Assembly: GCF_000317105.1 (NCBI RefSeq)
Contig: NC_019693.1
Span: forward strand, 3,903,227-3,967,226
Source: Oscillatoria acuminata PCC 6304
GTDB taxonomy: Bacteria > Cyanobacteriota > Cyanobacteriia > Cyanobacteriales > Laspinemataceae
Direction of reading: 5' to 3'
DNA length: 64,000 nt
Positions 201-62,700 of the stretch are shown here, one piece after another. The notes below the pieces were generated by a model, which was given only the letters and a program-made list of their open reading frames with translations, made no database searches and was not told where the DNA came from. Position 1 is the stretch's first letter; the number at the start of each line of letters is the position of its first letter. The translations under genes were made by a program, and so were the position numbers.

Positions 201-444
201 AATTGGTTCACAAGTCTGAGCAATCGGATCTTTATTCAATTGTAACGGGACTGCTCACCCCCGTTAGTTTTCTGACGCGGACTGACTGTTAATCAGTGAT
301 TCAAACTGCCAAAATTTATCCCGAGAAGACCCCCTAAAGCGGGCTCATCCCACTAGCCCTGTCAAGGTGTGTAGATTGTAGGGGCGTATTGCATACGCCC
401 AAAAGAGGGCGTATGCAATACGCCCCTACAAGAAACCCTGATTT

Positions 445-2966
445 ATTAGGGGTCGAGAATGGAGTCACCTCCATCCCCTCCCATTCAGAACCGGACATGA
501 GACTTTCACCTCATCCGGCTCCTAGTTTAGACGCCCATTGTCATTGGTACGACTTGACGTTCTGCATATCTTCAGCCGTCTTTTTATCGTGACAGTGCCG
601 ATGCAATAACTGTAGATTTCGGTATTCATCTTTACCTCCCATTGAGAGTGGCTGGATGTGGTCAACCTCCATCAAGTCTTCCATTGCGAAATATTGTCCG
701 CAACGTGAACATCGGCCTGAGTGCTTTTTAAGCAATTTTGCTACTCGCATTGGAACTTCTAATGAGGTTCCTCTTCTAGTTGCCCAATAACTCCAATTTC
801 CGTCATACGGGGATGCTTCTGGCTTGACCAATGTATGCCTTGTAATTTGAGTATAGGAGTGTTTCCAGAGACTTAATCCGTCTTTTGCTTGAAACAGCCA
901 CTTCTCATTTCTTTCCTTTCCGTTTCCGATTTTAACCGTGACCTTATGGAAATATTTTCTCAGCTTTTCAAGGTTTGCCTGACCGCATCTTGATACTGTC
1001 CATGCCCTCAATTGTTGCCAAATGTTATAGTCCATTTGGCTGAAGGTTTCCGCTGAAACTACCCCTGAGTAGTAATTACTCCAACCTCTAATGATTGGGT
1101 TTAGTCTACTTATTAGGGCCGCTTGGGGTGCAGTTTTATGATTTTTGATGACACCCTTTAATGCTTCACTGTGGGCTTTGATTGCTTTGGCGCTTGGCTT
1201 GATATGGGTTTTATGCCCGATTAGTCTGCTGTTTGCGCCTCCTGTTTTCCCGGACTTGTATTTACCTACTGGATATTGCCTAATGGTAAATCCGAGGAAA
1301 TCAAATCCTGGGGTGACCTTTTCTCCATTTACTTCGATTTCTCTAAGTGTGTGGCATATTTTGGTCTTTTCAGGTTTAAGCTCAAGTCCTACGGGCTTTA
1401 GCCAGTTTTCCAAAGCTATCTTGCATTGATTGATGATTTCAATCTCTGGTGAGATTACTACGAAATCATCGGCATATCTGATTAAGGTGGCCTTGACTTT
1501 CTGACCTTGAATTAAAGGATACAGTTCTTCGATTAACCTGGCCATTCCATCCAATGCAATGTTGGCCAGGAGCGGACTTATCACTCCTCCTTGGGGTGTC
1601 CCGCTTGGGGTCTCCTCAAATACGCCATTATCCACTACCCCTGCCTTTAACCATTGTTTGATTTGGCGACGGTGTTGTGAACAACAATCTAATTTGGACA
1701 GTAGGTATTCATGGTTAATCTTGTCGAAGCATTTGGTTATATCTGCATCTAGGACATAATAACTGCCCTTATTTATAGATGCGTAGATGCGACCTATTGC
1801 GTCGTGGGCAGAGCGTCCTGGTCGGAAACCATAGCTCGTCCCTTCAAACCTAGCTTCCCATTCGGGTTCTAAGGCTTGTTTAACCAAGGCTTGCTCGGCT
1901 CTATCTCTAATAGTTGGGATACCCAATGGGCGCTTTTCATTACGTCCTGGTTTGGGAATCCAAACCCTTCTGAGTGCTTTGGCTAAGAATTGTTCACCAA
2001 GGTCCTTAACAAGTTCGAGGCGTTGTTCGGGTTTTAAGGATTTTACCCCATCTATCCCTGCCGTCCTCTTGCCTTGGTTGTCTTGGGTCACTTTCCTAAC
2101 CGCTAAGAGCCTCGCGTAATATGACGAGGTTAGAAGTTTTTGCAACCTTCTGGCTTTGGCATCCTGTCCCGATTTAGCCGCTTGGAAAATACGTTTTTGC
2201 AACTTAAATACTTTCCTTTGAACTTTTGCCCAAGGAATTGCATTCCATGTTTCCGTAGTCTTTAAACTCGTATTAACCTTGTTCATTGCTACTGTCATCT
2301 ATCCATTGCGTCTAAACCGTAACCTGTTAGCCTATCCATTCCATTACAGAATGGCGTTTGCTTCGGGTTACATCTCACCCCCTCAGTGCATCCGCTTACA
2401 CTTATTACTACTTAGGAAATCGACCAATTTCTAAGAGCATCTGAGGGGTTATAACGTTCCGTCTATGTGGGTGATTCACTTTTTGGCTTGTCCTATCTCC
2501 CGGTGGAATTGAGGGTCTGTGTAGAGGAAGACGAAAAGCCTCTACCTTTCCACGTATCCTTTTTGGATGCAGTGTTTCATCCCATTTCACTGCTAATTTT
2601 TTACGAGAGTTCAGGCCGGACATTCAGTTTCCTTAGCCGTGAGCGATTAGCAGTGGTCTCTATCCTAGGTTGGTCTACCTATTAGAGCCTTCCGTTCCCC
2701 GCTTCAATCCTAGGGTCGTGACTCCTAAAACTGGGGGTGGCTATCGCCGTTGCACCTGAAAAGTGTTGGCAACAAATTATTGCACTACTCATCAGAACCC
2801 TGTGCCGTCCTACCTTGAGTACCAAATTGGTAACTCATTTGGACACGCATAGACAGTTATGAGGTCATCTGGGACGAGTCCCTTTATCTAACCCAAGGGG
2901 GGTTAAAGCCTCACTGGGGGTTATTTCAGGCATTTCAGCCTTATTTCACTCCCAAACGTTTCGCAC
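445..2966 (-). mobile_element. Group II intron (about 2.5 kb) with an intron-encoded protein in domain IV
   Basis: The reverse-strand 5' end reads GTGCGAAACGTTTGGG (consensus GUGYG). Domain V at about 486-519 reads (rc) GAGCCGGATGAGGTGAAAGTCTCATGTCCGGTTC, matching the classic consensus. The 3' end is ...CCCCTAAT, ending in AY. The boundaries exactly restore the uninterrupted MITE sequence GACGAA|AAATCAGGG. Confidence 0.85.
541..2298 (-). CDS. Group II intron-encoded reverse transcriptase/maturase with C-terminal HNH endonuclease domain
   Basis: 585 aa. RT palm motif is present (...LIRYADDFVVIS...). A maturase X region is present (RGWSNYYS). A C-terminal HNH motif is present (CSRCG...VDHIQPLSMGGKDEYRNLQLLHRHCHDKKT). 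Confidence 0.9.
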   Translation of the reverse strand: MTVAMNKVNTSLKTTETWNAIPWAKVQRKVFKLQKRIFQAAKSGQDAKARRLQKLLTSSYYARLLAVRKVTQDNQGKRTAGIDGVKSLKPEQRLELVKDLGEQFLAKALRRVWIPKPGRNEKRPLGIPTIRDRAEQALVKQALEPEWEARFEGTSYGFRPGRSAHDAIGRIYASINKGSYYVLDADITKCFDKINHEYLLSKLDCCSQHRRQIKQWLKAGVVDNGVFEETPSGTPQGGVISPLLANIALDGMARLIEELYPLIQGQKVKATLIRYADDFVVISPEIEIINQCKIALENWLKPVGLELKPEKTKICHTLREIEVNGEKVTPGFDFLGFTIRQYPVGKYKSGKTGGANSRLIGHKTHIKPSAKAIKAHSEALKGVIKNHKTAPQAALISRLNPIIRGWSNYYSGVVSAETFSQMDYNIWQQLRAWTVSRCGQANLEKLRKYFHKVTVKIGNGKERNEKWLFQAKDGLSLWKHSYTQITRHTLVKPEASPYDGNWSYWATRRGTSLEVPMRVAKLLKKHSGRCSRCGQYFAMEDLMEVDHIQPLSMGGKDEYRNLQLLHRHCHDKKTAEDMQNVKSYQ

Positions 2967-3227
2967 TTCGTCATTAAATTTATCACCTTGACAGGGCTAG
3001 CTCATCCCACCCTTTGGTGATAAAAATTGCTTAATTCATTGATTAATAACTACAAAGCGATTCAAATAAAATTTAATCAAAATTAACCACTAGGGCAGAT
3101 TTAAACAAAAAACTCCCCACGATGCGGGGGAGCGCAAAATCACCCAGTTTGAAATTTATAGAGCTTCAAACAGCTCCCCTTATTCACAATTAATCTATTC
3201 CTTCATGGGAACTCATGATTCTAGGGT

Positions 3228-4046
3228 TTAACCTTCAGTTTGAATCAGAGTTTGCGGCTTTTTTTTACCATATCTAAGGACTCCAAATCCCACCAGTAAG
3301 AGTGCTGTCGTAGCTGTAGGTTCCGGAACCTGTCTCGGACTTTCTGAGGGAATGCCGATATCAATCGTACCCCGTCCCGTGCCGCTAGCGCCGGCAAAAG
3401 TCTGTCCGTTAATGCTTTGGTAGCGAACACCAAAGTTGTTCAGAGCAAAGCTTTGAACTTCACCAGAAAAGGCTAGAGTCGCCTTAAAGTTTCCAGTATT
3501 CCCGGTAGTGACGCCGCCATTGCCTCCCCCTTCGCAGGTATTCCCATTGGTAAAGCAGACATCAATTTCTTTAAACCCATTAGGAAAGGAGCCAGAGCGG
3601 TCCTTGCTAAATAAGCCTTCAACTCGGGTCTTGCCTGCACCATTAGTGTTGCCGAGGCCAACCAAGTTCATACTTGACCCGACACTGGAGCCATCAAAAT
3701 TCCAAACATCAAACCCTAACGCTGAGGTGCGAGAGGTGATGCCATTGCTGGAGTTGTTCTTGAGGAACACATCAAAAATTGCCTCGGTGTTGCTGCCAAC
3801 GCTGTTAAATCCGAGGAATTTAAAAATTGCTTCTGATGAGAGTCCCGTAACGGTTTTTTCCTTGACGACGCTTCCGTCAAAGTTAATGGTAAACTCTTTG
3901 CCAATATCGCTGGCAGAAATGCCAACAGTTTTACTGCTGTCAAAAAGAGTAAACGCTGAGGCAGAAGCGGCGACTGTCAAGGAGTAAACCCCGACGGAGC
4001 CAATGACTGATAGTCCTAAAGTAAGTGGTTTGAGCAATCTAAACAT
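3228..4046 (-). CDS. PEP-CTERM sorting-domain secreted protein (exosortase substrate), function unknown
   Basis: N-terminal signal peptide (MFRLLKPLTLGLSVIGSVGVYSLTVAASASA). C-terminal PEP-CTERM motif (VPEPTATTALLLVGFGVLRYGKKKPQ). Gly/Asn/Ser-rich mature part. Confidence 0.6.
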   Translation of the reverse strand: MFRLLKPLTLGLSVIGSVGVYSLTVAASASAFTLFDSSKTVGISASDIGKEFTINFDGSVVKEKTVTGLSSEAIFKFLGFNSVGSNTEAIFDVFLKNNSSNGITSRTSALGFDVWNFDGSSVGSSMNLVGLGNTNGAGKTRVEGLFSKDRSGSFPNGFKEIDVCFTNGNTCEGGGNGGVTTGNTGNFKATLAFSGEVQSFALNNFGVRYQSINGQTFAGASGTGRGTIDIGIPSESPRQVPEPTATTALLLVGFGVLRYGKKKPQTLIQTEG

Positions 4047-4516
4047 ATCTCTTTCCTGAATGCTACCAGCATAATGGGTGAAATTGAACCGACGGTTGTT
4101 GCACTCTTAGTTGGCTGTTCTAGTCAGAATATTTATGCCACCCTATTAAGCACTTGCACCAAGCGACGGAATTGGTTAATTCCTTCACTTTTTTAAAAAG
4201 TAGGCCTAACTCCCACTGGGCGGAGCCATCGCCGGTACTCCATTCAACTGTACCCAGACTGACTTAACTCTGTCCATAGTTTTGTGCCAGCTTTGTAAAA
4301 TCTTTATATAAATAAAATAAATACTAAAATTCAGACAGAGTTTGGCTCGGCACAAATACAAAGTTTTGATAAAGTCCGAGATTTTACGGAGCAACAAGTC
4401 CTCAATGAATGAATTGCGGACTTGTTGACTAAGAGGGTTTAACCTATTCTTACCTCATGGAACTGGGATTGTCCTCAGCAAAATCGCGTAACTTGGGCAA
4501 AAAAGGAATAAAGAGA

Positions 4517-6148
4517 TTACTGAGGAGCCACTGCATAATCGATAAGTTGAGCCAGTCGTTGGCGCAGGGTTTCGAGTCCGAGACGCTGACTAGCACAGAT
4601 AAAGACAGCCAGGGGAAACTCTTCCTTGGCGATCGCCAAGGTATCCCCATCCACCGCATCAATCTTATTAAAAGCAACCAGGGCCGGTCCTGGAGTAACC
4701 GGCATTTCCCCTAAAATCTTCATCACGGATCGAATCTGACTTTGCCATGCCGGATGGGATAAATCGACAACGTGCAGCAAGGCATCCGCTTCGGTGACTT
4801 CTTCTAAGGTGGCGCGGAAGGCATCCATCAAGGAGGGGGGCAGTTCGTGAATGAATCCTACCGTGTCAGTGACAACTATAGTCTGGGTACTGCCGAGCAC
4901 CGTGGGAATCACTAACCGGCGGGTGGTGGGGTCCAAGGTGGCAAATAGTTGATCTGCCGTATAAATTTCCGCATTGGTCAAGGCATTGAGCAGGGTGGAT
5001 TTACCGGCGTTGGTGTAACCCACGATCGCCACGGAAGGGACATCTTGATGTTGGCGTCGCAGACGCATCCGCGATCGATGGGCCTGCAATTCGTTCACTT
5101 CCTGTTGCAAACGGGCAATTCGCCGTTGAATGGCGCGGCGTTCGGTTTCCAGTTTGGTTTCTCCAGGGCCTCGGGTCCCAATTCCGCCCCCTAAGCGGGA
5201 CATCGCTTGACCGCGACCCGTGAGGCGGGGCAGCATATATTCCAGTTGGGCTAATTCCACTTGGAGTTTACCTGCCCCAGATTGAGCGCGTTGGGCAAAG
5301 ATATCCAGAATCACCTCAGTGCGATCGACTACGCGGACGCCGATTTGGACCTCCAGATTGCGGACTTGGGCCGGAGACAGTTCGCGATCGAAGACAATCA
5401 GATTGCTGCCGAGGGTTTGGGCCGTGAGGGCGATTTCTTCCACCTTACCCTTGCCGACCACAGTTTGGGGATGGAGTCGGGGACGTTTCTGGCGCATGGT
5501 TTGCAGGACGGTTCCCCCAGCAGTATCCACTAGACGGGCGAGTTCGGTGAGTCCATCTTCAAATTGCTCATCTTTGAGATTATGGGTCATCACCCCGACT
5601 AATAGGGCGCGATCGTGGTCCGCATCCACATCCCGGGCAATAAATTCGCGCTGAAACTCCGCTTCTAGGCCCTCGACGAGTTCTAGGAAGTCCTGTAGGG
5701 AGAGGGCATCCAGACTCATGGGGGGAGAAACAGTCCAGGTGGCGATCGGTCCATCGCCCTCACCCTCATCCATTCCCGTTTGGGGAATCAAATGTGCTAA
5801 ATAGGACTGACTCACATAACCCGTGGCCCCACCTCCACGCCGTTCAAACCCCTCCCCGGTTAAATTCAAGACGACTAACGCATCCAAGCGTTGAATCGCC
5901 ATTGCCGTCAGAGAAGACTCACTTGGCCCCTCTCCCTTCAACTGAGTCGTAATACAGCGAATCCCACTCAGACGCCCCTCACCATACCGGGGTAATTCCA
6001 TTGCTGGGATTTGGGTTTGACGCGGTGAACCCACCCCCACCCGGATCACTTGACCCCGACGATTGATATAAACACAAAGGGAATCGTTAATTTCCGTACT
6101 AATCGCCGCCAGACGCTGGGCAAATTCCGAGGTAGTAATCGCATCCAC
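4517..6148 (-). CDS. hflX: GTPase HflX
   Basis: 543 aa. G1 motif [15 protein letters not shown] and G3 motif DTVGF are present. The HflX N-terminal domain and coiled-coil linker ([15 protein letters not shown]) are present. Confidence 0.85.
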
Positions 6149-6606
6149 GGGGAGTTTTTGGTGGTACAGACGGTTAAGTTGCTTAAGCTGACTGGATTTA
6201 AGTCCTTGTAGCTGTCCATATATCGTTTCGATAGGCGTATTGACCAGGAAACTGGCCCTCCGAACTCTTTATTTCTTTATTTTATCGTGAGTTAAAGGGA
6301 TGTTAGGGAGTTTAGCTGTTTTAAAGGGCGCTGGATGATTTAAGGGGGGAATGGAGGCATTGGGATAGAAAGAAAAGAGGCAATCTGTCAAACATCCTGG
6401 GTAAGGGTTACTGCCAATCCCGCAGAGTCGCTATTGTTATTAGTTAGGCTGCTAATTTTGTTAATGCCTGCAATGTGTTCCCCTGCCAAGGCAGTTCGAG
6501 AACCCAGCCATTTTTACGGAGGTCGCGAGAGGTTCGGGTAGGGGCGATCGCCTCTCCATACCTTGAGGAGAAAGCAGTCTAGGTTTGGCCTGAACCAGAG
6601 ATTAAC

Positions 6607-8474: not shown

Positions 8475-8508
8475 AATAAAAAGCAGTAAATTGTTATCAG
8501 ATTACCAT

Positions 8509-9072
8509 CTATTCTAACAGCCAGCCAAATATCTCTGCCACCGTTAACTGCAACTCGCTGGCAAAGGCAGGAACGGGAATTTGCTGTTCAGGTTCGTCAA
8601 AAAAATTCGTTTTCTGGTCAGGATAATACACCCAAATGGTCTGTTCCGTGGGGTCAATCAGCCAACCCATTTGAGTCCCATGTTTGAGAGCGTGCAGAAT
8701 TTTTTTTGTGACTTTGGTTTGACTCTGTGCGGGAGAGAGTATTTCTATCATCCAATCGGGAGAGTCGTTAAACACATTGGCTACTCTGCCATTTTCTGTC
8801 CTGGGGATTCTCTCCCAAGTAAAGACGGCGATATCTGGCACAAGGGTTCGTCCATCAAAGATACAGCGCAGTTCTGGGAAAGCTCTGGCTATTTTTTGCG
8901 GCTTCACAACGGCAGTAATTGCGATAATCAGTTCCGCTTGAATTGTGCTGTGTTCTCCTTGCAGCATTGGCTTTTAAATGATTTCGCCTTCAATATATTC
9001 ACTGGCGGGTTTGGTTTCAAGGAGGTTGAGAAACTCTGCTAAGGTTAAAGATTTGGATGGGGTTTGGATCAT
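8509..9072 (-). pseudogene. Uma2-family gene, tandem paralogue of 9118-9681 carrying a nonsense mutation (CAA to TAA at about 8979-8981); a residual 152-aa ORF spans 8509-8967
   Basis: Nucleotides 8968-9072 align with the coding N-terminus of the downstream paralogue (9568-9681). The Gln codon of the intact copy (ttg on + strand) is tta here, giving an in-frame stop. Confidence 0.5.
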
Positions 9073-9117
9073 GTTAGGGGTTCTCCAAAATGATAAAATT
9101 TTTTATTAAATTACTAT

Positions 9118-9681
9118 CTATTCTAACAGCCAACAAAATATCTCTGCCACCGTTAGCCGCAACTCGCTGGCAAAGGCAGGAACGGGTATTTGCTGTTCAG
9201 GTTCATCAAAGACTTCGATTTTTTGCTGAGAATGATATACAAAAACAGTCTTTTCTTGGGGATCAATTAACCAACCCATTTGAGTTCCCTGCTTGAGAGC
9301 GTTCAGAATTTTTTTTGTGACTTTGGTTTGACTCTGTTCGGGCGATAAAATTTCTATAAGCCAGTCTGGTGCTGATGTAAAAATATTAGCAATTTCGCCA
9401 TTTTCGTCCCGGGGAATTCTTTCCCAGATAAAGACTGAAACATCAGGGACAATCGATTGTCCTGCAAAACTGCATCTCAGTTCAGAAAAGGCTCGGGCAA
9501 TTTTAGGTCCTCTGAGAGTGGCATTGACTGTAGCCGCCAATTCGGTTTGAATTGAACTATGTTTTCCTTTCGGCATTGGCTTTTGAATGATTTCGCCTTC
9601 AATATATTCACTGGCGGGTTTGGTTTCGGGGAGGTTGAGAAACTCTTCTAAGGTTAAAGATTTGGATGGGGTTTGGATCAT
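9118..9681 (-). CDS. Uma2-family (DUF820) endonuclease-like protein, intact paralogue
   Basis: 187 aa. It is highly similar to the 8509-8967 product (..IARAF.ELRC.F.G....PD..VF.WERIPR.ENG..AN.F...PDW.IEILSP.QSQTKVTKKIL.ALK.GTQMGWLIDP..). Confidence 0.6.
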   Translation of the reverse strand: MIQTPSKSLTLEEFLNLPETKPASEYIEGEIIQKPMPKGKHSSIQTELAATVNATLRGPKIARAFSELRCSFAGQSIVPDVSVFIWERIPRDENGEIANIFTSAPDWLIEILSPEQSQTKVTKKILNALKQGTQMGWLIDPQEKTVFVYHSQQKIEVFDEPEQQIPVPAFASELRLTVAEIFCWLLE

Positions 9682-9979
9682 GTTAGGGGTTCTCCAAAAT
9701 GAGTGGGGTTGGGTGTGCGATCGCCTCTCTCAAATTCCCCCTATTATAGCGCTCAATCCTAGAGCGCATTCCGTTTTCCCAAAAAAGAAACCGGATTTCT
9801 GATTCAAGGTAAGGGTCTCTCCCTAATCCTTGTTCAGAAACCCGGTTTGTGGATTGTTTAGAGGGTCAGTATAGGATTAGTCCCAAGGGACAAGAAACCG
9901 GGTTTTTACAAAAATTTACTGTTAACTGGCAGAAGTTTTGTGAAAAAACCCGGTTTCTAACCTTTGTGCTAAACCCGGA

Positions 9980-21797: not shown

Positions 21798-21837
21798 TGG
21801 GTTATTATCGTGTTTGTTTGATCATCCACGGGGACCT

Positions 21838-25380: not shown

Positions 25381-25930
25381 GGTTCTCTCCGGTCCCCTCC
25401 CCTTGGCAAGGGGAGGGTTAGGGTGGGGTTCTTTTTGTGCGATTCCCTACGGGATAGCTCCGCTTACCGCACATCACGAAGAAAGAGGTTGGCACCCGGC
25501 TCCATACAGGCGCGATCGCCCTAGCCCTGTCAAGGTGATAAATTTAATGACGAAAAATCAGGGTTTCTTGGACAGGCGATCACTCTCGCGGCCCTACAAG
25601 AGGTAAATTTAATGACGAAAAATCAGGGTTTCTTGTAGGGGCGTATTGCATACGCCCAAAAGAGGGCGTATGCAATACGCCCCTACAATCTACACACCTT
25701 GACAGGGCTAGTGCGATCGCCCCCAAGAGTGCGTGACGTGGCGATCGGCAAAGAGGGACCCCACCCTAACCCTTCCCTTGCCAAGGGGAGGGAACCGGAG
25801 GTGCAGTTAAGCGTAAAAAACCTACTCTTGTATAAAGAATTAATCCCCCCCGGTTGTTTCCACTCTTGCTCCCCCTTCCCTCCCAGGGAAGGGGGTTGGG
25901 GGGTTAGGTCAATCTGGATGAGCAAGCAAA
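25381..25930. repeat. Nested repeat region: MITE copy B (25521-25711, with an internal partial tandem duplication) inserted into a larger palindromic element whose intact counterpart lies at about 46990-47170
   Basis: CTAGCCCTGTCAAGG...CCTTGACAGGGCTAG encloses the GGGGCGTATTGCATACGCCC hairpin. The flanks ...CACGAAGAAAGAGGTTGGCACCCGGCTCCATACAGGCG / GAGTGCGTGACGTGGCGATCGGCAAAGAGGGACCCCACCCTAACCC are contiguous in the 47040-47130 copy. Confidence 0.65.
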
Positions 25931-27258: not shown

Positions 27259-29253
27259 TCACGAACTGCTTCGACTAACTATTTCAACGGCTTTAGCATT
27301 TAATCCCTTTTCGTTTATTAAAAGTACAAATTCAACCACATCTCCAGCATTTAATCTTTGCTCATCACCACGAATATCGCGAAAATGAACAAAGATGTCT
27401 TGTTCGTGTTTCCCTCTAATAAAACCAAACCCTCTAATATTGCTAAACTTCGTCACTGTGCCCTGTTCTCGTTCAACTTGTGCAGCAACAAATGCAGATT
27501 GGGGACGTTTTAAAGCTGGTGATTCTGCTGGAGTTGTAACGAAATCCTCATTTAGTTGGGTAATGAGATCAGTTGTAAAGGCTTTGCGGCGAGTTGCCTC
27601 AAATTGAGAATAAGTCACTTTTGCCAGCACTTTATCAATTAAAAGAGTAGCCTTTTTAAAGGTTTCAAGGGCTTGATCGTCATCCCATAAAACCCCACGT
27701 AGACTATCACAGTATTTTTCAATCTTCTTGCTGTTCAAATAAGGGATTTGAGATGTCTCAACCAACATACGAAATAACATTAAAATATGAAAACGAAAAG
27801 CCCGATAGCTTTTGGCATTTAATGTTTTTTGCACAAAGAAGCGTTCAAGTAAGCTATATGCGTAACCACTACAGTAATAAGGGTAAGGATTATGTTCCTC
27901 TTGAAAAAGCTTCTCTTCATAAGCTTTTAACAACTCACCGTAATAACGATGCGTACTTTGTGGCTCATTCAAAAACATCCCCAGAAAACATTTGACTTGT
28001 GTTGCTAATGAAATGATCTGGGTAGGTTTTACAGGAAGTCCATCATATTGCTTAGAACGGCGCTCATAATAAAGTGGTCGCTCATTTTTTAAGGTAGTAT
28101 AAAATTCTTCAAGCTGTTTATGAAAAGGCTTGATTGATTAAAATGCTTCTACATAAACTTGAGTTTGCCTATTAGTTGCTCGAATAATTTGGTTCGTCAC
28201 TTCAGTATTGTTTGTGACTATCAGTTTTAATGGCACAAACAATTTGTCAGTGAGCGCATCCTTGTTAAGGAATATTACATGACTTGTCTGGCAGCCATTA
28301 ACGACCTGATAGTCTTGAATAGAAAAGCGTGAACCAACCTGCTGAACATTCTTAGCAACTACTGTAATTCCATTATTCAAAAGAGCAAATCTATCGCTTT
28401 GCTCTTGATCCTGTATCGTTACTTCAATTTCTTGGTTAACAAGATTATGTCCTTGAAAATCTCGTACATTGTCATAAAAAAGACTTCTAATAAGATTGCC
28501 CTCGGCATCTGTGATTAGCTTCAAATACTCTAAAGCCGGTAGAATTCCAATATAAGCTTGATGGACTTCACCAATAGTCGGCATAGCCGTGTGTTTTTCA
28601 AAATTGATTTCTTTAGTAACTTTCCGTCTCAACTCTAAATAAAGTCGCTTAATATACTCATTATCTACAGGAACAAACCGAACTTGACTAAAAAGCTTAG
28701 TTCCTTCAATTGCAGTTTTTTCAACTTGAATTCTACCCTCTAAGGTTGCATCTCCTAACCATGTTCCTGTCGTAACGTAGTACATCTCACAGACAGGGGC
28801 CTTACCCATGTCCATATCAATGCTAAATCTGTAAACATAATCTTTGAGAGTACGAAGGTTTGTTAACTGCGGATTCATAGGAATCGCAGGTTGCTCTTCA
28901 AAGAAACTACGAACACCAAACAAAAAGTTGCCTAAATCTCCCGAATCAAATTTTGGTGAAGTTTTTGATTGTATAAAAACAAATTTTACCTCAAATCGGC
29001 GTAGGGTTTTACGAAAAAAGTCTATTTCTTCTTGTGATGTGACAATGTGATCGTTGACAAGAACTGCTATTCCATCAAGAGCATTATCATGACTTCCACC
29101 AATTATTGTGGTTTCAACGTCAAAAGGATCAGGGTGAATTTTCGAGAGAACTGTGTGGTTGACAAAATATTCAAAAGCAGTTGCTTCATCAAGGTGATCA
29201 AGGCTACTCTCATCAACAAAATTTTTGACGTAACTCTTTAGAATCTGATCCAT
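27259..29253 (-). pseudogene. AIPR-like (abortive-infection phage-resistance family) gene with C-terminal cold-shock (CSD) domain, interrupted by a single in-frame TAA at 28138-28140
   Basis: ORFs 28138-29253 (371 aa, contains VVNGCQTSHVIF, an NGxQT-type motif) and 27259-27978 (239 aa) are in the same frame. The 159 nt between them translate without stops (SIKPFHKQLEEFYTTLKNERPLYYERRSKQYDGLPVKPTQIISLATQVKCFLG). The C-terminus GTVTKFSNIRGFGFIRGKHEQDIFVHFRDIRGDEQRLNAGDVVEFVLLINEKGLNAKAVEIV matches the CspA-type CSD pattern. Local GC is about 38% versus about 50% in flanks. Confidence 0.5.
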
Positions 29254-29535
29254 ACTTCAAATTAGGTAAGGAATTTTAATACAAGATTGGGTCTTGTTTT
29301 GAAGAGCAAGGCTACCGACTATTATTATAGCCCTAAAAATTTTGGAGGCTTTTCCCAAAAAACTCTTTAGGTTTTTATTTTAACACTATAACTGTCGAGG
29401 TGTCAAGAACAGCTAGAGGTTTGAGCTATAAATGTTTATAGTATGGTTGTAATCTTTGCTAGATAAGGCTTTTTGCTTCTAGTAAGTAGGAGTAAGGTGG
29501 GCAGTACCCACCCTACAATTGCTTGTTGGATGATA

Positions 29536-29550
29536 CCTTGACAGGGCTAG
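29536..29550. repeat. Solo terminal repeat of the MITE family (CCTTGACAGGGCTAG) at the right boundary of the low-GC island
   Basis: Exact 15-mer. GC content switches from about 38% to about 55% at this point. Confidence 0.5.
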
Positions 29551-29773
29551 GGGTTTGGGGTTGCCCGTAGTGAGAATCAGCAGTGTCGCGCAGGTTTAAA
29601 ATGCGAACCGTGGGAACCATTTTAAGGGTGTTCAATATGATTCAATGTTAATGGGTCGAGATAGAGAAACCGGCGGCGGGTCTAGAGGCGGGAGAGCAGG
29701 GTGGAGCCGAGGGGGTGTTGGCGGTGATCGCAGTTGAAAAACAAAACCATCGGGCGCGGGAGTCATTATTCCC

Positions 29774-30190
29774 CTAATCGACGGATATAATCTCAAAACT
29801 ATCACGGTTATGAATCCGGTAAAACAAAAAATCAGAGTCCAGGGTTAAAATTTGGCGCTGTCCGGTCTCTTCTGCTACCAATACAAGAGTTGCATCAGCA
29901 AAGTCCATCGGGCGATCGCGATATTGTTCCATCAATGCCAACAAACGGGTCATCTGTTGCGCTGTATCAATGGAATAGGTGATAAGTCCGCCCTGAACAA
30001 TTAGCTTGCCCAGTTGGTGTTGCATTGTCCAACCGCCTAGCCGATGAGTCAGATACATGGCTTCTGTGAGACAAGCCCAAGTCGTCAACAAGGGGCAGGC
30101 GTAACGGCTAATGGCTTGGCGGTAAGCGTAGTGTTTGGGCTGTCGGCGATCGACAATGGTAATCAAAATGCCGGTGTCACAGAGAATCAC
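29774..30190 (-). CDS. vapC: PIN-domain toxin (VapC-like)
   Basis: 138 aa. N-terminal MILCDTGILI with conserved acidic residues (D5, E, D..). Overlaps the upstream small ORF by 4 bp. Confidence 0.65.
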   Translation of the reverse strand: MILCDTGILITIVDRRQPKHYAYRQAISRYACPLLTTWACLTEAMYLTHRLGGWTMQHQLGKLIVQGGLITYSIDTAQQMTRLLALMEQYRDRPMDFADATLVLVAEETGQRQILTLDSDFLFYRIHNRDSFEIISVD

Positions 30191-46365: not shown

Positions 46366-46474
46366 TCCCTGAATTTCAGGTCCCCTCTGGATCCTGACGA
46401 AGTTTTGCCGGTTTCAAGGCTAAAATTGGAATTAGGGAAGCACCCGTTTGTTGTGAGGCGATTTTATTGGGATC

Positions 46475-46745
46475 ATCTTTGAAAAGAGACCTATCCCCCC
46501 GGCCCCCTTCCCTAAGAGGGAAGGGGGAGAAAGAGATTTGTTTTCCCCTTTCTTTAGTAATTGGGAGCATCTTTGAAAAGAGACCTATCCCCCCGGCCCC
46601 CTTCCCTCAGAGGGAAGGGGGAGAAAGAGATTTGTTTTCCCCTTTCTTTAGTAATTGGGAGCATCTTTGAAAAGAGACCTAACCCCCCGGCCCCCTTCCC
46701 TAGGAGGGAAGGGGGAGAAAGAGATTTGTTTTCCCCTCCCCTACA
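46475..46745. repeat. Tandem repeat, about 3 units of 94 bp, each containing the palindrome CCCCCTTCCCTAAGAGGGAAGGGGG
   Basis: Units start at 46475, 46569 and 46663 with exact 94-bp period. The ORFs over it (46467-46670, 46561-46854) are frame artefacts. Confidence 0.85.
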
Positions 46746-46790
46746 AAAGGCTTACAAGAGTATGTTTTTTACCCTCATGGTGATTGGCCG

Positions 46791-46990
46791 GACTTCCGGT
46801 CCCCTCCCCTTGGCAAGGGGAGGGTTAGGGTGGGGTCCTCCTGACTTGGCTTGACTTCCGGTTCCCTCCCCTTGGCAAGGGGAGGGTTAGGGTGGGGTCC
46901 TCCTGACTTGGCCTGATTTCCGGTCCCCTCCCCTTGGCAAGGGGAGGGTTAGGGTGGGGTCCTCCTGACTTGGCGCAGGCCAAGTCAGGA
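46791..46990. repeat. Tandem repeat, 3 units of 62 bp (GACTTCCGGTCCCCTCCCCTTGGCAAGGGGAGGGTTAGGGTGGGGTCCTCCTGACTTGGC...) ending in the palindrome GACTTGGCGCAGGCCAAGTC
   Basis: Units start at 46791, 46853 and 46915. Each contains the CCCCTTGGCAAGGGG palindrome. Confidence 0.85.
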
Positions 46991-47109
46991 AGAATTAGTA
47001 CGTTGAGGGTCCACTCGCAAGGGCGATCGCACGTCACGAAGAAGCAGGTTGGCACCCGGTTCCATACAGGCGATTAAGCCTCATGGGAGTGCGTGACATG
47101 GCGATCGAC

Positions 47110-47422
47110 CAAGAAGAACCCCACCCTAACCCGGACCTAGAATCAGGGGAGGGGACCGGAAGTCAGGCCAATTAGGGAATTCCAAAAAATAAAATCTCCA
47201 AAACGTTCGTAGTGACGGATCAACGGAGTAGCCCCTACAGATACCTTCCTTTCAGTTGAACGTTTGGAGGATTTATATTTTGCAATCCCCTTAGAAGAAC
47301 CCCACCCTAACCCGGACCTAGAATCAGGGGAGGGGACCGGAAGTCAGGCCAATCAATTAGAAGAACCCCACCCTAACCCGGACCTAGAATCAGGGGAGGG
47401 GACCGGAAATCAGGCCAATCAT
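47110..47422. repeat. Three copies (two tandem) of an about 66-bp unit AGAAGAACCCCACCCTAACCCGGACCTAGAATCAGGGGAGGGGACCGGAAGTCAGGCCAAT, in inverted orientation relative to the 46791-46990 array
   Basis: The CCCCACCCTAACCC core is the reverse complement of the GGGTTAGGGTGGGG core of the upstream array. ORF 47264-47467 is a translation artefact of the repeats. Confidence 0.8.
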
Positions 47423-51889: not shown

Positions 51890-51901
51890 TGGAATCATCT
51901 A

Positions 51902-54931: not shown

Positions 54932-55061
54932 TGTTACTCCTCTGGTTTTGAGTTCACAAATAACAGGACTTACGCATAAACTCCTGATGCGATAAGGTTG
55001 ATTCGCGAATCAACCCTACCTGAACAGGTGTGATTTTAAATAATGCGTAAGTCCTAAGTTA

Positions 55062-57560: not shown

Positions 57561-57672
57561 GAATTAGGGTTATATAATCAACAATTTGTAAAGGGTTCAA
57601 CTGTCTATTTCATCATGACCCACAGGATAAATCTAACAGACCGGCACCTGTGAGGATGCCGGTATTTTTCCT

Positions 57673-59169
57673 TTACGTTACCGGGCCGCGATTGTCGATT
57701 TGCGCCCGTTGTAAGCGTCCGGAAAAGTCTACATAGACTGTTTTCCATTCCGTAAACACATCCAACGCTGCTGTCCCCGCCTCACGATGGCCGTTGCCGG
57801 TTTGTTTGACGCCGCCAAAGGGTAAATGCACCTCGGCACCAATGGTCGGACCATTAATATAAGTGATTCCGGCTTCAATATCGCGCATGGCTTGAAACGC
57901 CCGATTCACATCGCGAGTATAAACGGAGGAGGATAACCCGTAGGAGGTATCATTGAGAATGGCGATCGCCTCTTCAAAGGAAGAAATTTCCATCAACGCC
58001 ACCACTGGGCCGAAAATCTCTTCCCGGGCGACCCGCATATGGGGCATCACCCCATCCAGGATAGTGGGTTCAAAAAAGAATCCTCCCGTGAGCGTTCCAG
58101 CCGTTGTGCGATTGCCCCCGATTAGAACCTTCGCTCCCTCTTGATGGGCAACTTCAATATACTCCTCAATCGTATTCAGTTGCGTAGCATTGACAATCGG
58201 TCCAATTTCAGTATTGGGGTCTGTTCCGGGTCCCAGACGAAGTTTCTGGGTGCGATCGACTAGCATTTCCGTAAATTTATCCTTAATATCCCGATGCAGC
58301 AAGAGACGACTGGTGGCGGTGCACCGTTGTCCACTCGTGCCAAAAGCGCCCCAGAGTGCGCCTTCCAGGGCTAATTCTAAATCCGCATCCTCCATCACCA
58401 CCTGGGCATTTTTCCCACCCAGTTCCAAACAAACCCGCTTGTGCTGTTTGGCGCAGATGGCCGCCACTTCTGCGCCGGTTTGTGAGGACCCGGTTAAGGA
58501 AATTAAATTGACGTCGCGATGTTCTACCAAGGCTTTTCCCGCTTCTTCTCCCAACCCATGCACCAGGTTGACGACCCCCGGGGGAAATCCGGCATCATGG
58601 AAAACCTGAAACAGCAAGTGAGTCACCGCCGGGGTGTCTTCGGACGGTTTCAGGACGAGGGTATTGCCACAGACTAAGGCAGGCATTGCTTTCCAACAGG
58701 GAACGGCAACGGGAAAATTCCAAGGGGTGATTAAACCGCAGACGCCGATCGGCATTCGCACCGTCATCGCAAATTTATTATCCATTTCCGAATTCGTGGT
58801 TTGCCCGAACAGACGGCGACCTTCTCCGGCATAATAAAAGGCGCAGTCAATGCCTTCTTGGACATCTCCATTGGCTTCAGTCAAGGGTTTCCCCATTTCC
58901 TGACTCATTAAATAGGCCAGTTCGGCTTTGCGATCGCGCAATAATTCCCCGAAGCGGTATAAAAATTCCGCCCGTTCTGGTGCCGGAACTCGTCGCCAAG
59001 TGCGATAGGCACGACGGGCGGCAGTGACGGCCATTTCTATATCAATGTCCCCCGATCGCGGAAAGGTTGCCACCAGTTCGCGCCAATGAGCGGGATTGCG
59101 ACTTTCCATCGTTTCCCCAGAGGCGGGGGCTAACCAGTGACCATCAATATAATTTAGACAACTATGCAT
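57673..59169 (-). CDS. NAD(P)+-dependent aldehyde dehydrogenase
   Basis: 498 aa. ALDH Glu active-site motif LELGGKNA. Cys motif (..GQRCTA..). Glycine-rich cofactor motif GSSQTG. Confidence 0.85.
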
Positions 59170-59201
59170 GGTTAATCCGGGCTAAGATAGATAGGGACAG
59201 C

Positions 59202-60335
59202 TTACAACCAATGATGAACAATCTCGATTCCCCGAGTTGTCATAATTGATTCAAACAATGAAGTAGATAAGGCTTGTTCTACGGGCCATACGCCCGGTTT
59301 GGTGAGCTTGCCATTGAGCATCAGTTCGGCGATGGTTCCGGTGCCAATTCCCGTGGCAACAGCGGCGCTATGATGAACCACAGCACTACAAACCGTGGCG
59401 GGTTCTCCCTCGGCATTCCTGCCGTTGACTTCCGATCGCACCGCCACCCCAGTCCCGCTAAATTTGTCCGTGACTCCTGTCATCCGGTAGCTGACTTGAG
59501 ATAAAAACTCGACTACGGCGGAATTTTTCAGGGCGGCGGCGGGCCATAAATTAGCCACCATCCAGGTTAAATGGTTGTAAAGGTCCGGGGAGGTCCCGAA
59601 TTTGGTAATGGCTGTTTTAACGGGGAAGGAGTCAGGTAAGGTAAAGGCTTCTGGCATATCAAACCAGTAAACTCCGACCTTTCCGTAGGGTTGGGGAAAT
59701 TCGATGATTTCGCGAGCAGTATAGGGTTGAACCTGTTGCCATTCACCATCAATCCAGACATCAAAGGGGTTTTGTAAGCCTAAAAAGGTGGTTCGCATGA
59801 CGGTGACTCCTGCACCTCCGGACCCGCCCACAACATAGCTTAAATGAATGCGATCGGCCTCTTGAAGTTGTTCGACCCCTTGGCGCACCATGCTGTTAGA
59901 AATTCCGGGAAAGATGCCAGTATTAATCACGGCGGTTACCCCCGCTTGAGCGGCGGATTCCTGTAATGCCAGGGCCCGGCGGGTGAATCCTCGATTATCG
60001 CTAACATCGGTATAGTTGACACCGCGATCGATGCAGAGTTGGAGGACTCGGGCATCCCGGTGATGGAAGGGTCCGGCACTATGAACGACCAAATCGCTGG
60101 CGGCGATCGCCTGTTCTAGTCCGGCGCGATCGTCTAAATGTAGCGCCCGAAACTTCAGGCGATCGCCCAGGGTCTCCTCCACTGATTTTCCCGATGTCGT
60201 GTCCCGTCCTGTTATCGTAATTTCTGCATCGGTATGGGTAATCAAATCTTGGGCAATGCTGCTGCCGATCCGTCCCCGTCCGCCAATAATCAAAACTCGT
60301 TGACTCATGTCTTTAATCCGTAACAATACCCCCAT
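59202..60335 (-). CDS. Saccharopine-dehydrogenase-like NAD(P)-binding oxidoreductase
   Basis: 377 aa. Rossmann N-terminus RVLIIGGRGRIGSSIAQDL. Sacchrp_dh-type length. It lies 33 bp upstream of the ALDH gene and is co-directional with it. Confidence 0.6.
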   Translation of the reverse strand: MGVLLRIKDMSQRVLIIGGRGRIGSSIAQDLITHTDAEITITGRDTTSGKSVEETLGDRLKFRALHLDDRAGLEQAIAASDLVVHSAGPFHHRDARVLQLCIDRGVNYTDVSDNRGFTRRALALQESAAQAGVTAVINTGIFPGISNSMVRQGVEQLQEADRIHLSYVVGGSGGAGVTVMRTTFLGLQNPFDVWIDGEWQQVQPYTAREIIEFPQPYGKVGVYWFDMPEAFTLPDSFPVKTAITKFGTSPDLYNHLTWMVANLWPAAALKNSAVVEFLSQVSYRMTGVTDKFSGTGVAVRSEVNGRNAEGEPATVCSAVVHHSAAVATGIGTGTIAELMLNGKLTKPGVWPVEQALSTSLFESIMTTRGIEIVHHWL

Positions 60336-60671
60336 TGCAGCATTTTTCTCTCAGTCTGGCATCTATACGAAGAAGGATCGCGAGGGACTGAGTACAGAAT
60401 GGGTTCTGGATTTGATTTTGGCCGGACTTTTTGTGAATCCCCAGAAACAGGACAATGTTCATTGTTCTTGCATGGATTGAGGGGAAAATTGTAGGGTTGG
60501 CAGTTCCCAGCAAGGGACTGAGGTTTTGTAATGTTGATCCGTTCAATTTCCCTAAATTGGACCGCCTTTTTTGAAGATTTAGTAAAGTGAGTCCATTTTG
60601 TTTGGAACAATTCCAGTTCAGGGAATAGAATCAGAGCGATCGGGATATCCAAATACTCAGGAACGACCGCC

Positions 60672-61382
60672 ATGAAACATTTTACTCAATTCTTATTAGC
60701 CCCCCTTGTGGCAACTGTAGGACTCGCCAGCTTCCCTGCTGTTGCTGGGGCTTTTGGCATCAGCTTTGTGAATGATGATCTTGATTTTAACGCCCTTAAC
60801 CCGAATTTAGCCTTTGTTGCTGAGGGGCGAATCGGTAACAATGCCCCGGACGTCACTCATGAATTAAATTTTCATGGGATTAATGACCCCACCGCCACTT
60901 CTGGTCAAGCGGATTATGTTTGGACCAATGGAGTTTCGACGGTGTTTAAGCTGATGTATGATGCGACGACTCGCAATATTAGCTATCAAGTCGGGGATAC
61001 CATTTTAAACTCGATCGCCAATGAAAATTTGGTTTCCGACATTTTTATCCGCGTTAGAGCAACCGTGTCCGAAAGCAGCATTGCGATCGCCAATTTAGTC
61101 TTCAATGGCACTCCCATCTCCCAATCCCTGGCGATCGCCGGAACCAGCAATTGGAGTGAAAGCATGGAATACTTGCGAATCAGTGGTTTCACCGACAGTT
61201 TCAGCCTAGAAGGGACCTCCCTCATGTCCTGGGGAAATACTCTTCCCAAGAACTCCAATCTCGCCTATCAAATTAAGGTAGGAAATGCCGAAGCAGTTCC
61301 TGAACCCTTAAGTATTTTAGGACTGGGGTTGGGTGCGAGTGGACTCGCCTTCATGAAAAAGCGTCGCCAGCGTTCAGCCTAA
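60672..61382 (+). CDS. PEP-CTERM sorting-domain secreted protein
   Basis: 236 aa. Signal peptide MKHFTQFLLAPLVATVGLASFPAVAGA. C-terminus VPEPLSILGLGLGASGLAFMKKRRQRSA is a PEP-CTERM motif. Confidence 0.6.
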   Translation: MKHFTQFLLAPLVATVGLASFPAVAGAFGISFVNDDLDFNALNPNLAFVAEGRIGNNAPDVTHELNFHGINDPTATSGQADYVWTNGVSTVFKLMYDATTRNISYQVGDTILNSIANENLVSDIFIRVRATVSESSIAIANLVFNGTPISQSLAIAGTSNWSESMEYLRISGFTDSFSLEGTSLMSWGNTLPKNSNLAYQIKVGNAEAVPEPLSILGLGLGASGLAFMKKRRQRSA

Positions 61383-61454
61383 GCCTATTTTAATTGGGCC
61401 AAATTGACATCTGATTTAGGTTGGAGTAAACCTAATGAATTCTAAATTTAATGC

Positions 61455-61503
61455 CGATTTTCGGTGTATAATTTTGACAATTATACACCGAAAATCGTTT
61501 TTA
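61455..61503. terminator. Bidirectional Rho-independent terminator between convergent genes
   Basis: Perfect inverted repeat CGATTTTCGGTGTATAATT-ttgaca-ATTATACACCGAAAATCG followed by TTTTT (+) and preceded by an A-run (for the minus strand). Confidence 0.55.
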
Positions 61504-61504
61504 A

Positions 61505-62434
61505 TTATACTGAAGATAAAACACTAGATTCAGTCAAATTCTCTTGAAACTCTTCAGCAATCTGGGCAAGAACCCGATATAAATCCTGGGTATGTTGCCA
61601 TCCCACAAACCCGCAAAATACACAAATCCCTAAAGGGTTTTCAATAAAAACATGGTGAACTTGAACGGGATTTTTCCACACTCTAATTTTCATCCCCGTA
61701 TTAAACGTTAGATAGGGTTTAGCCCGCACAAAATCCCGGCGATGTGCGGCAGTCATAGCACTCAGGGCTCGCAAATGCTGAATCACTGCATAAGTTAAAT
61801 CCGCTTCAGGCAGGGGAGAAATCACCGGATTGTCCCAAAAGTCGCGAATAATTTGGACTAACTGGGGATGATTGCTGAGGGCGGGATGAGATATTCCGGG
61901 CAAACAGATAAATTGAGCGCGGTCAAACTTAGTGGATTCAATACTAATCGTGCGATCGCTGCCATTATCGGTATCTCCGGCAATAATTAAAGTGGGGATA
62001 ATTTCCGCCAGAGATTCGGCAATTTTCCGCCGATTGATGCCCAAATCCCGACCCATCCCCAGTCCCCATTTAAACGGATCTAAAATCCGGGCTAAATCCG
62101 CCCCACCAACGGGAGAAGCCAACAAGACTAAGGAATGAATTTGCGATCGCCATTCCGGATGCCGATGCAGCACTTCTAACCAAATCAATCCCCCCATCGA
62201 ATGCCCGATAATTCGCATCGGAGTGGTGGGATAGGTGGCGAGGGTTTCTCCCACCAAAGTTTCCACAGTTTTAATTAACGGTTCAATCCGATAAAAGGTC
62301 CGCAACCAACCCAAATTCGGGGTAATAATCCGGCAGTTCGATGTCTTTAAAGCCTCAGCCAGTGTAGCAATTTTATGATGGGTATCCGCCCATCCATGTT
62401 GAGCATACAGAATAAAGTCCGGTGATTCGCTCAT
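61505..62434 (-). CDS. Alpha/beta-hydrolase fold protein (lipase/esterase-like)
   Basis: 309 aa. Nucleophile elbow IIGHSMGG. Confidence 0.6.
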   Translation of the reverse strand: MSESPDFILYAQHGWADTHHKIATLAEALKTSNCRIITPNLGWLRTFYRIEPLIKTVETLVGETLATYPTTPMRIIGHSMGGLIWLEVLHRHPEWRSQIHSLVLLASPVGGADLARILDPFKWGLGMGRDLGINRRKIAESLAEIIPTLIIAGDTDNGSDRTISIESTKFDRAQFICLPGISHPALSNHPQLVQIIRDFWDNPVISPLPEADLTYAVIQHLRALSAMTAAHRRDFVRAKPYLTFNTGMKIRVWKNPVQVHHVFIENPLGICVFCGFVGWQHTQDLYRVLAQIAEEFQENLTESSVLSSV

Positions 62435-62544
62435 TCTAGCTATAGCCCTCCCACAAACGCATCAGATCATTTCCCTTATTATAGAAACTCTCCCTCGTCC
62501 AGGGGTGCAGGACTAGGGAGAGGACAAAAACAGGGGTCTTTAGC

Positions 62545-62700
62545 CTAGCCCTGTCAAGGTGGTAAATTGAATGACGAAAAATCGTTATTTCTTGTAGGGG
62601 CGCAATGCGCAGGCCCTCCGGAGGGCCTGCGCATTGCGCCCCTACAGATACCTTCCTTTCAGTTGAACCGTTGCATGATTTATATTTTGCAATCCCCTTA
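62545..62700. repeat. MITE copy E (left TIR plus variant hairpin GGGGCGCAATGCGCAGGCCCTCCGGAGGGCCTGCGCATTGCGCCCC) fused to a 55-bp module (GATACCTTCCTTTCAGTTGAAC...TTTGCAATCCCCTTA) that also occurs at 47234-47292
   Basis: Direct comparison of the 62647-62700 and 47234-47292 stretches. The right TIR is replaced by the shared module. Confidence 0.6.

Follow-up and report, generated by a model that had tools for sequence, protein, structure and literature searches.

A repeat family of probable MITE type with IS4-type ends and GTAG-tagged hairpin cassettes in Oscillatoria acuminata PCC 6304

[quoted passage not shown] Within the IS4 family, IS231A is said to target GGG(N)5CCC. The repeat Nezha reportedly favours A+T-rich targets, and the small dispersed repeats (SDRs) of Nostoc punctiforme, credited to Elhai et al. 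2008, are said to measure 21-27 nt, to be nested in larger repeats, to have hairpin potential and to have been proposed as mobile. Here we describe a family of short palindromic repeats in a 64,000-nucleotide stretch of the Oscillatoria acuminata PCC 6304 genome (NC_019693.1, positions 3,903,227 to 3,967,226; the window in what follows). It is represented there by five copies, A to E, and a solo terminal inverted repeat (TIR). These are very probably copies or remnants of a non-autonomous MITE mobilised in trans by an IS4-family DDE transposase of about 455 amino acids.

The IS4 family has been defined by its DDE and YREK residues, with the direct repeats of its members tabulated, and insertion specificity has been recorded for IS231 (PMC2266710). 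According to the summary of Zhou et al. 2008 given in PMC3184786, Nezha is about 130-170 bp long and is tied to the insertion sequence ISNpu3 in the Nostocaceae. SDRs have not been found outside the Nostocaceae (PMC5861425). IS1397 and others insert into the palindromes of REPs and bacterial interspersed mosaic elements (BIMEs), going by the work cited in PMC3116915. GTAG-tagged REPs have been described in cyanobacteria (Di Nocera et al. 2013, PMC3733652), and in Anabaena variabilis dimers of one type, GTAG-15, are reported to be embedded in longer conserved palindromes (PMC3733652). REP doublets forming hairpins (REPINs) were described by Bertels and Rainey (2011, PMC3116915). A literature search for the TIR string of the present family returned irrelevant matches only, with no description of the TIR among them. 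The element is new or at least undocumented, with Nezha and ISNpu3 compared by description only.

Anatomy, target sites and autonomous partners

The canonical element is 126 bp long and non-coding, and is obtained either from copy A by removing a group II intron or from copy B by removing a 65-bp duplication. It runs from a 17-bp TIR through a long arm ((A/G)TAAATTTAATGACGAAAAATC...TTTCTT), a hairpin cassette (GTAG-GGGCGTATTGCATACGCCC, a 6-nt spacer, then the reverse complement to a terminal CTAC) and a short arm (AATCTACACA) to the second TIR. The 15-nt terminus CTAGCCCTGTCAAGG is found at 9 window sites with at most 2 mismatches, where 0.09 would be expected, and the 17-mer CTAGCCCTGTCAAGGTG with at most 3 mismatches finds the same 9 sites as the 15-mer (0.17 expected). 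The cassette arms come in two variants in the window, v1 (GGGGCGTATTGCATACGCCC) at 7 sites and v2 (GGGGCGCAATGCGCAGGCCC) at 4, each with approximately none expected. As single-stranded DNA the 126-bp element has a predicted fold of -50 kcal/mol (z = -13.8). Every cassette arm by itself folds into a short hairpin, its stem 8 bp and its loop 3 nt long. In copies A, B, C and E the two arms, 25-28 nt long, are 100% complementary, so that the doublet can form one long hairpin.

All copies are intergenic, and A and B have perfect 17-bp TIRs. Copies B and C contain 65-bp internal tandem units (repeat families D13 and D12, respectively), in agreement with the internal duplications noted in a preliminary description of this DNA. 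The unit in copy B consists of long arm and degenerate hairpin, with the v1 cassette at 25635-25686, and that in copy C bears one v2 arm; copy C also lacks the outer 6 bp of its short-arm TIR. Copy B is 95% identical to a copy in a related metagenome-assembled genome (MAG; locus L024). Every copy position given in the preliminary description holds a copy, with copy C starting at 38703 instead of 38704 and the solo end spanning 29534-29550, but the TIR is 17 bp long and not 15 bp as described there. For the solo end, no partner TIR was found.

Direct target duplications, which the preliminary description does not mention, flank copy A (9 bp, exact) and copy B (10 bp, one mismatch). A scan with the 17-mer TIR over one public genome per species gave at least 120 loci, nearly all in filamentous cyanobacteria. 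At least 25 of them are in MAG MFD01721.bin.1.50, at least 17 in Oscillatoria sp. HE19RPO, and at least 14 each in Oscillatoria S11.Bin022 and Phormidium pseudopriestleyi, while Calothrix, Nostoc, Scytonema, Microcoleus, Laspinema and others also appear among the matches listed. Together with the window, these matches hold 51 elements with paired TIRs, their lengths being 94-451 bp and, for six insertion sequences, about 1.5 kb. The exact duplications at the 51 paired elements, copy A included, are mostly 10 bp long (n = 19), with five of 9 bp and two of 8 bp. Several further paired elements among the listed matches have flanks that agree at 9 of 10 positions.

From the same matches, 26 distinct 10-bp target sites were reconstructed. 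The three positions before the duplication are G in 14, 16 and 22 of the 26 sites; the last position of the duplication is C in 16, and the following three are C in 20, 15 and 11. Target sites are also more palindromic, with 5.35 of 13 positions complementary versus 3.29 in random 26-mers from the same DNA. The target rule is roughly GGG-N10-CCC, and the duplications counted above lie at such sites. This preference, for a motif that is common at the tips of G+C-rich hairpins, would account for the nesting of copies in other palindromes. In Calothrix PCC 7716 the copies are inserted in tagged GGTGGGCAnTGCCCACC hairpins. Copy B sits, as had been proposed, within another palindromic element, a larger repeat with 57-nt arms that are 86% complementary, and the nesting of copy C in the palindrome that follows ureC is probably explained in the same way. 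The host palindrome of copy B (25470-25760) reads CACGTCACGAAGAA...GGCACCCGG...CATACAGGCG ... GAGTGCGTGAC. It has a MITE-free paralogue at 47020-47130, which approximates an empty site for copy B and differs in the central 15 nt.

Six loci among the matches listed have paired TIRs 1456-1598 bp apart around one open reading frame (ORF) of 457-471 amino acids where intact. Autonomous elements with identical 17-bp TIRs, 1456-1937 bp in length, occur in Microcoleus, Calothrix, Rivularia, Microcystaceae and Laspinema, and four full elements (L063, L121, L122, L123) are flanked by duplications of 9-10 bp. The genome of Calothrix sp. PCC 7716 has both a 1485-bp insertion sequence with perfect TIRs and a 10-bp duplication (GTGGGCAGTG) and three 179-bp MITEs of one and the same sequence, which are unrelated to the window MITE in their interior. 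Two strains of Laspinema, an oscillatorian genus related to the present one, carry the same 1937-bp insertion sequence at different loci, with duplications TTACTCAAA and CCCTTCAGGG (9 and 10 bp). The Laspinema element (941-2877 in both L121 and L122) owes its length to an extra 198-bp unit at the left end with a degenerate inner TIR, CTAGCCCTGTCAATAGG, and the composite of insertion sequence and 198-bp unit moved as one unit in the two strains.

The encoded proteins match Pfam DDE_Tnp_1 (E = 1e-9), and IS4_1 is the best NCBIfam model. An alignment of six sequences, 53-65% identical to the first, has D134, Y305, R308 and E312 invariant, with D at position 204 in five of the six and E in that of L107. 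The spacings D-70-D-108-E, in a single ORF, are within D(60-110)D(100-150)E, and Y-2-R-3-E is present. Homologues are numerous (3547 at E <= 1e-20 among 8000 candidates scored). Searching the PDB with the transposase sequence brought up no related protein of solved structure, and the 126-bp element had no BLAST match among the PLSDB plasmids. The MITE-like family with TIRs that had been proposed from the letters of the window is thus borne out by TIR and arm counts far above chance, by 9-10-bp duplications at complete copies with consistent termini, both in the window and, in some 30 cases, in related genomes, and by the autonomous partner that the preliminary description had proposed to look for, with the same 17-bp TIRs and the same duplication length.

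Judging from the chemistry of the IS4 family, the transposase would recognise the 17-bp TIRs of the MITE, excise it and insert it elsewhere by a staggered cut of about one helical turn, leaving the 9-10-bp duplications. Movement would be by cut-and-paste in trans, with symmetric GGG-N10-CCC sites preferred. The interior of the MITE does not derive from known full-length insertion sequences and is made up of two short arms round a cassette of one or two REP-like units of GTAG and palindrome. Accordance with an IS4-type origin is not complete, and several observations weigh against it. Of the 51 paired elements in the listed matches and window, 24 lack an exact duplication of at least 6 bp, and some of these 24 have inverted instead of direct flanks. 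In the window, clean duplications are missing from four of the six copies, namely C, D, E and the solo end. The IS4_1 score of 91 bits is below the 115-bit cut-off, and in the six aligned sequences the canonical K six residues after the E of the YREK motif is not conserved. The insertion sequences and the MITE have only the 17-bp TIR in common, and no transposase homologue was found in the window. The present form of C, D, E and the solo end is due to recombination or deletion. The source genome presumably has a resident partner, as its relatives do, and the family may still be transposing there today. The possibility that the MITE arose by deletion from the insertion sequences sampled was rejected, since only the TIR is common to both.

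Table 1. Positions of family members and associated features in the window
Feature	Position	Strand	Remarks
Copy A, left target duplication	344-352		CTCATCCCA, GGG before; identical to 3001-3009
Copy A, short-arm half	353-444	+	TIR 353-369, short arm, v1 doublet cassette 378-429 (GTAG...CTAC), long-arm start
Group II intron	445-2966	-	2522 nt; 5' GTGCG (at 2966), 3' ...CTAAT
Copy A, long-arm remainder and right TIR	2967-3000	-	TIR 2984-3000
Copy A, right target duplication	3001-3009		CTCATCCCA, then CCC
Copy B, left target duplication	25511-25520		CGCGATCGCC, contains HIP1; 9/10 match to 25712-25721
Copy B	25521-25711	+	complete; 191 bp = 126-bp element + 65-bp internal tandem unit
Copy B, right target duplication	25712-25721		TGCGATCGCC
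Solo TIR	29534-29550	-	1 mismatch; small tagged hairpin GGTGGGCAGTACCCACC-CTAC ~20 nt inside
Host palindrome of copy C, left arm	38680-38702		just after ureC stop codon; partner arm 38889-38912
Copy C	38703-38887	-	starts CTGTCAAGG; intact TIR 38871-38887; v1 cassette 38722-38773
58-bp direct repeats flanking copy D	40319-40376 (+) and 40518-40575		100% identical (D20)
Copy D	40376-40451	+	MITE half: degenerate TIR, short arm, hybrid cassette (v1 left, v2 right)
Family-2 left arm fused to copy D at cassette	40452-40517	-	98% identical to 47181-47235
Family 2, cassette-less form	47177-47296	+	centre ...GGAGTAGCCCCTACAG...; second carrier of cassettes
Copy E	62545-62646	+	MITE half: TIR, long arm, v2 cassette doublet; other TIR missing
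Family-2 right arm fused to copy E at cassette	62647-62703	+	repeat family D19

Hairpin cassettes and their two carriers

In about 50 copies from the listed matches and the window, the cassette always has GTAG, rarely GTCG, followed by a palindrome. As in GTAG-tagged REPs, whose palindromes measure some 20-40 nt, GTAG lies directly 5' of the palindrome, and the units are arranged as inverted, tail-to-tail doublets (elements of 123-126 bp) or occur singly (94-102 bp). There are at least six stem variants, and they are shuffled relative to two types of short arm. Hybrid doublets are present in L019, L008, L013 and window copy D, where the v1 left arm and the v2 right arm can be read directly, as the preliminary description had stated. 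Its two hairpin-core variants are real as arm variants, but they belong to separable GTAG-tagged cassettes that also occur outside the MITE. The window cassettes form hairpins of the GTAGGGGCG type, and in the window no tetranucleotide stands at the feet of perfect hairpins as often as GTAG (8 hairpin ends). The motif GTAG[GA]GG[CT] has 374 sites in the window and the loci, 142 of which lie over 400 nt away from the nearest TIR core, and many of the TIR-distant sites lie in a stand-alone palindrome, aaatGTAGAGGCGATTCGCGAATCGCCTCTACattt. An isolated tagged hairpin far from TIRs is also found at 54996-55015 (GGTTGATTCGCGAATCAACC, then CTAC).

The cassettes have a second carrier, a palindromic MITE-like element of about 115 bp (family 2) with no other homology to the IS4-type MITE. 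It occurs without a cassette in the window (47177-47296) and in L111, and as a complete copy with a doublet between both arms in L084. Its arms read GGGAAyTCCAAAAAATAAAATCTCCAAAACGTTCG... and ...GAACGTTTGGAGGATTTATATTTTGCAATCCCC, and the window copy may have a 3-bp TTA duplication. Copies D and E, which had been listed as copies or fragments, do contain MITE halves; they are not simple fragments but chimeras, each half an IS4-type MITE and a family-2 arm, fused at the cassette. The architecture of copy E is found again in the MAG, both at the orthologous site (L115) and at an unrelated locus (L071), and all four half-and-half combinations are seen in relatives (L071, L074, L084, L115). Fusion at the cassette in all four combinations makes the cassettes junctions of recurrent recombination, and the chimeras lend indirect support to the earlier idea that these elements are recombination hotspots. 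The cassettes behave as separable modules at which recombination has repeatedly yielded chimeras, D and E among them, and dispersed cassettes are probably exchanged mainly by homologous recombination or gene conversion. The 58-bp direct repeats around copy D, which are 199 bp apart, each contain a GTAGAGGCGATTCGC-type tagged hairpin of a third dispersed family. Their length is far beyond that of a target duplication, and they may reflect a tandem duplication or template switch.

A dedicated enzyme for the cassettes was sought through the tyrosine transposases that are associated with REPs (RAYTs). A survey seeded with E. coli rayT led to cyanobacterial homologues and a family of 6624 members at E <= 1e-10. 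REPs of the type GTAGGRTGYGTT...AACGCAYC lie on the flanks of five cyanobacterial RAYT genes; neither the window nor any of the 123 loci, whether TIR-derived or insertion-sequence loci, contains this type. An ORF of the HUH/Y1 class, defined by the regular expression HUH...Y..NP, was likewise found neither in the window nor in the 123 loci; the pattern does match genuine cyanobacterial RAYTs. As far as the window and these loci show, the cassettes are REP-like in form only.

These results bear on the possibility that an IS4-type MITE carries REPIN-like cassettes that are independently mobile, being inserted and excised by a Y1 enzyme of RAYT type. The same GTAG...CTAC units in two carriers without other homology would fit such mobility, as would the related palindromes that stand alone, the family-2 copies with and without cassette, the occurrence of single units beside doublets, and the replacement of single arms between orthologous copies. 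We nevertheless consider it rather unlikely. No cognate RAYT was found in the window and the 123 loci, the RAYT-flanking REP type being absent there, and the empty and filled junctions of family 2 are not cleanly identical. Plain recombination at cassettes does occur, as the chimeras demonstrate, and could explain most of the shuffling. If a dedicated enzyme did move the cassettes, this would be a REPIN-type system outside the Proteobacteria whose natural habitat is the interior of a DDE-type MITE.

Orthologous sites, the ureC hairpin and the intron

The window is syntenic with and about 90% identical to its nearest relatives, MAG MFD01721.bin.1.50 and Oscillatoria sp. HE19RPO, and orthologous copies differ in orientation, cassette variant and number of internal units. 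The site of copy C (window 38680-38912, L108 3590-3880) is filled in the MAG too, in the opposite orientation and with a different cassette variant, and both copies lack the same 6 bp of the TIR on the short-arm side. The simplest reading would be one old insertion and a later inversion by way of the host hairpin's inverted 24-nt stems, which would make the site a minor instance of inverted repeats mediating an inversion. Copy E is common to the MAG, where it has cassette variant v3 (GGGGCGCAATGCTTGCGCCC) and an extra unit. Copy D is not at the orthologous MAG site, which has an unrelated palindrome, and HE19RPO (L066) has a copy near 57635 where the window is empty, its far end lost at a contig end. 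Among the relatives compared there is no clean empty orthologue of A or B.

Copy C lies between inverted repeats of 24 nt that are 96% complementary (38680-38703 and 38889-38912). The preliminary description had placed it in the loop of the ureC terminator. It is indeed inside a host hairpin, but the terminator is unproven: the + strand after ureC gave no terminator-like call, and the stem is followed by CGTAGAGTTTAAAAC with no T-run. The hairpin was rejected on these grounds as a demonstrated terminator. Within the urease alpha-subunit ORF (36943-38676), an antisense match to the Rfam 5' ureB small RNA (RF02514, 85.9 bits) lies at 37094-37384 on the minus strand, and is most likely due to coding-sequence conservation instead of a small-RNA gene.

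The hairpins could also be functional, kept by host selection as terminators, mRNA stabilisers or protein-binding sites and not as selfish DNA. The intergenic position of all copies, their very stable folds, and the retention of C and E at orthologous sites in a genome diverged by about 10% are compatible with such a role, and the copies might have some regulatory effect. We consider selection for host function very unlikely as an explanation of the family. Copy C has neither a T-run nor a terminator-like call, and the variation of orientation, cassette variant and unit number at orthologous sites is unexpected under selection. Presence also appears to vary among relatives, and the duplications and the autonomous partner explain the origin of the copies without any function.

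That the whole elements are REP/BIME-like palindromes or REPINs spread by a RAYT, with the TIRs as conserved outer parts of a palindrome, is extremely improbable and largely refuted: direct duplications of 9-10 bp are not expected of Y1 transposases, whose IS200/IS605-type chemistry to our knowledge leaves none, the outermost 17 bp coincide exactly with the termini of insertion sequences that encode a DDE transposase, some MITEs with the same TIRs in Calothrix lack the tagged hairpin, and the RAYT-flanking REP type and HUH/Y1 ORFs are missing from the window and the 123 loci. Such an origin would account for the tail-to-tail doublets of GTAG and palindrome, which resemble GTAG-tagged REPs (PMC3733652) and REPINs (PMC3116915), and for the window copies without target duplications, and cyanobacterial RAYT genes with GTAG-tagged REPs on their flanks are common.

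Besides its cassette, the IS4-type MITE offers a site to another class of mobile DNA. The intron in copy A has an Rfam Intron_gpII match to domains V and VI at 445-523 (58 bits) and an ORF at 541-2298 (minus strand) with RVT_N, RVT_1, maturase (GIIM) and HNH domains. It is inserted in the long arm at AATGACGAA^AAATC, the target junction in the MITE arm being GGTGATAAATTTAATGACGAA^AAATCAGGGTTTCTTG. In Oscillatoria S11.Bin022 (L038) the 5' end of an intron with 98% identity over 91 nt abuts that position too (GATGATGAA^GTGCG); the arm unit that it occupies there is internal and belongs to another MITE copy, whose flanks differ. Two independent occupancies of one arm sequence suggest that the MITE long arm may serve as a homing site of this HNH-encoding group II intron, which has taken it as insertion site in two independent copies. 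A metagenome scan for relatives of the intron reverse transcriptase (RT) kept 80 loci, at most 67% identical; none of the 80 has its intron inside a MITE, the relatives being inserted elsewhere. One of them has a single 11-nt match to the TIR core with at most 1 mismatch, which we take as chance. The metagenome RT relatives add no support for homing to the MITE beyond the window and L038.

These relationships could be drawn together in a tentative picture of selfish nesting in three layers, which we hold to be possible but doubtful: independently mobile, REPIN-like cassettes colonising at least two unrelated carriers and acting as recombination hubs that give rise to chimeras, the MITE residing in palindrome tips, and the intron using the MITE arm as a harmless multicopy homing site. 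The instructive details are the modular cassettes common to two carriers, the recurrent chimeras, the flip within a hairpin, and the intron at one arm position twice. For annotation, a repeat of many filamentous cyanobacteria now has a named mechanism; it can be masked, and contig breaks are to be expected there. For genome dynamics, short palindromic units are concrete recombination junctions between different mobile elements, and the intron result suggests that group II introns could multiply without harm to genes. Current concepts of transposition are unchanged.

Other window features and comparison with known systems

A block of dense tandem repeats occupies 46466-47419, with three units of 94 nt, three of 62 nt, and others of 66-181 nt. 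It is built of CCCCTTCCC/GGGAAGGGG and CCCCTCCCCTTGGCAAGGGGAGGG hairpins, and related single units are found at 21833, 21949, 25385, 25760, 25856 and 30626. A 21-nt tandem repeat of about 7 units at 34903-35047, within ORF 34752-36701, would encode a repeat rich in Pro, Asp and Thr. Two adjacent repeats of about 600 bp at 8488-9702, 80-92% identical over aligned stretches of 165-300 nt and with ORFs at 8509-8967 and 9118-9681, look like a tandem gene duplication. Beside the solo TIR, 28138-30190 contains an ORF that has just the first third of an abortive-infection (AIPR) domain, as well as a PIN-domain ORF, and could be a degraded defence or toxin locus.

Compared with known systems, the present family agrees with the IS4 family (e.g., IS231 with its MIC231 cassettes, IS10 and IS50) in its single-ORF DDE transposase with D...D...E and Y-2-R-3-E, in the length of the autonomous elements (1.46-1.6 kb), and in the 9-10-bp duplication, which is within the 8-13 bp of that family (PMC2266710). 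It differs in the absence of the canonical K, in scoring below the IS4_1 cut-off, and in a MITE interior without homology to insertion sequences beyond the TIR. The 5'-CT ends are like those of the IS10 and IS50 subgroups. The symmetric GGG...CCC target preference recalls the GGG(N)5CCC reported for IS231A. The likeness to SDRs, as very short repeats nested within larger elements, is one of description and not of sequence.

With Nezha, going by the summary available for it, the family has in common a size of about 130-170 bp, TIRs that recur in a full insertion sequence of a related species, direct repeats, a very stable fold and, apparently, filled and empty sites between relatives. It differs in its GGG-N10-CCC targets and its many hosts among the Oscillatoriales; the two were compared by description, and identity is neither shown nor excluded. 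Like elements of the IS1397 type, as these are portrayed in citing work, it inserts in the apical part of other palindromic repeats, but it belongs to another family of insertion sequences and follows a simple GGG-N10-CCC motif without requiring a specific REP. Finally, the cassettes have the form of GTAG-tagged REPs and REPINs, namely GTAG with a palindrome of some 20 nt, common tail-to-tail dimers and several variants per genome, and like the GTAG-15 dimers of Anabaena variabilis they are nested in longer palindromes. They differ in that no associated RAYT was found in the window and the 123 loci, and in that their carrier here is a bona fide DDE-type MITE.

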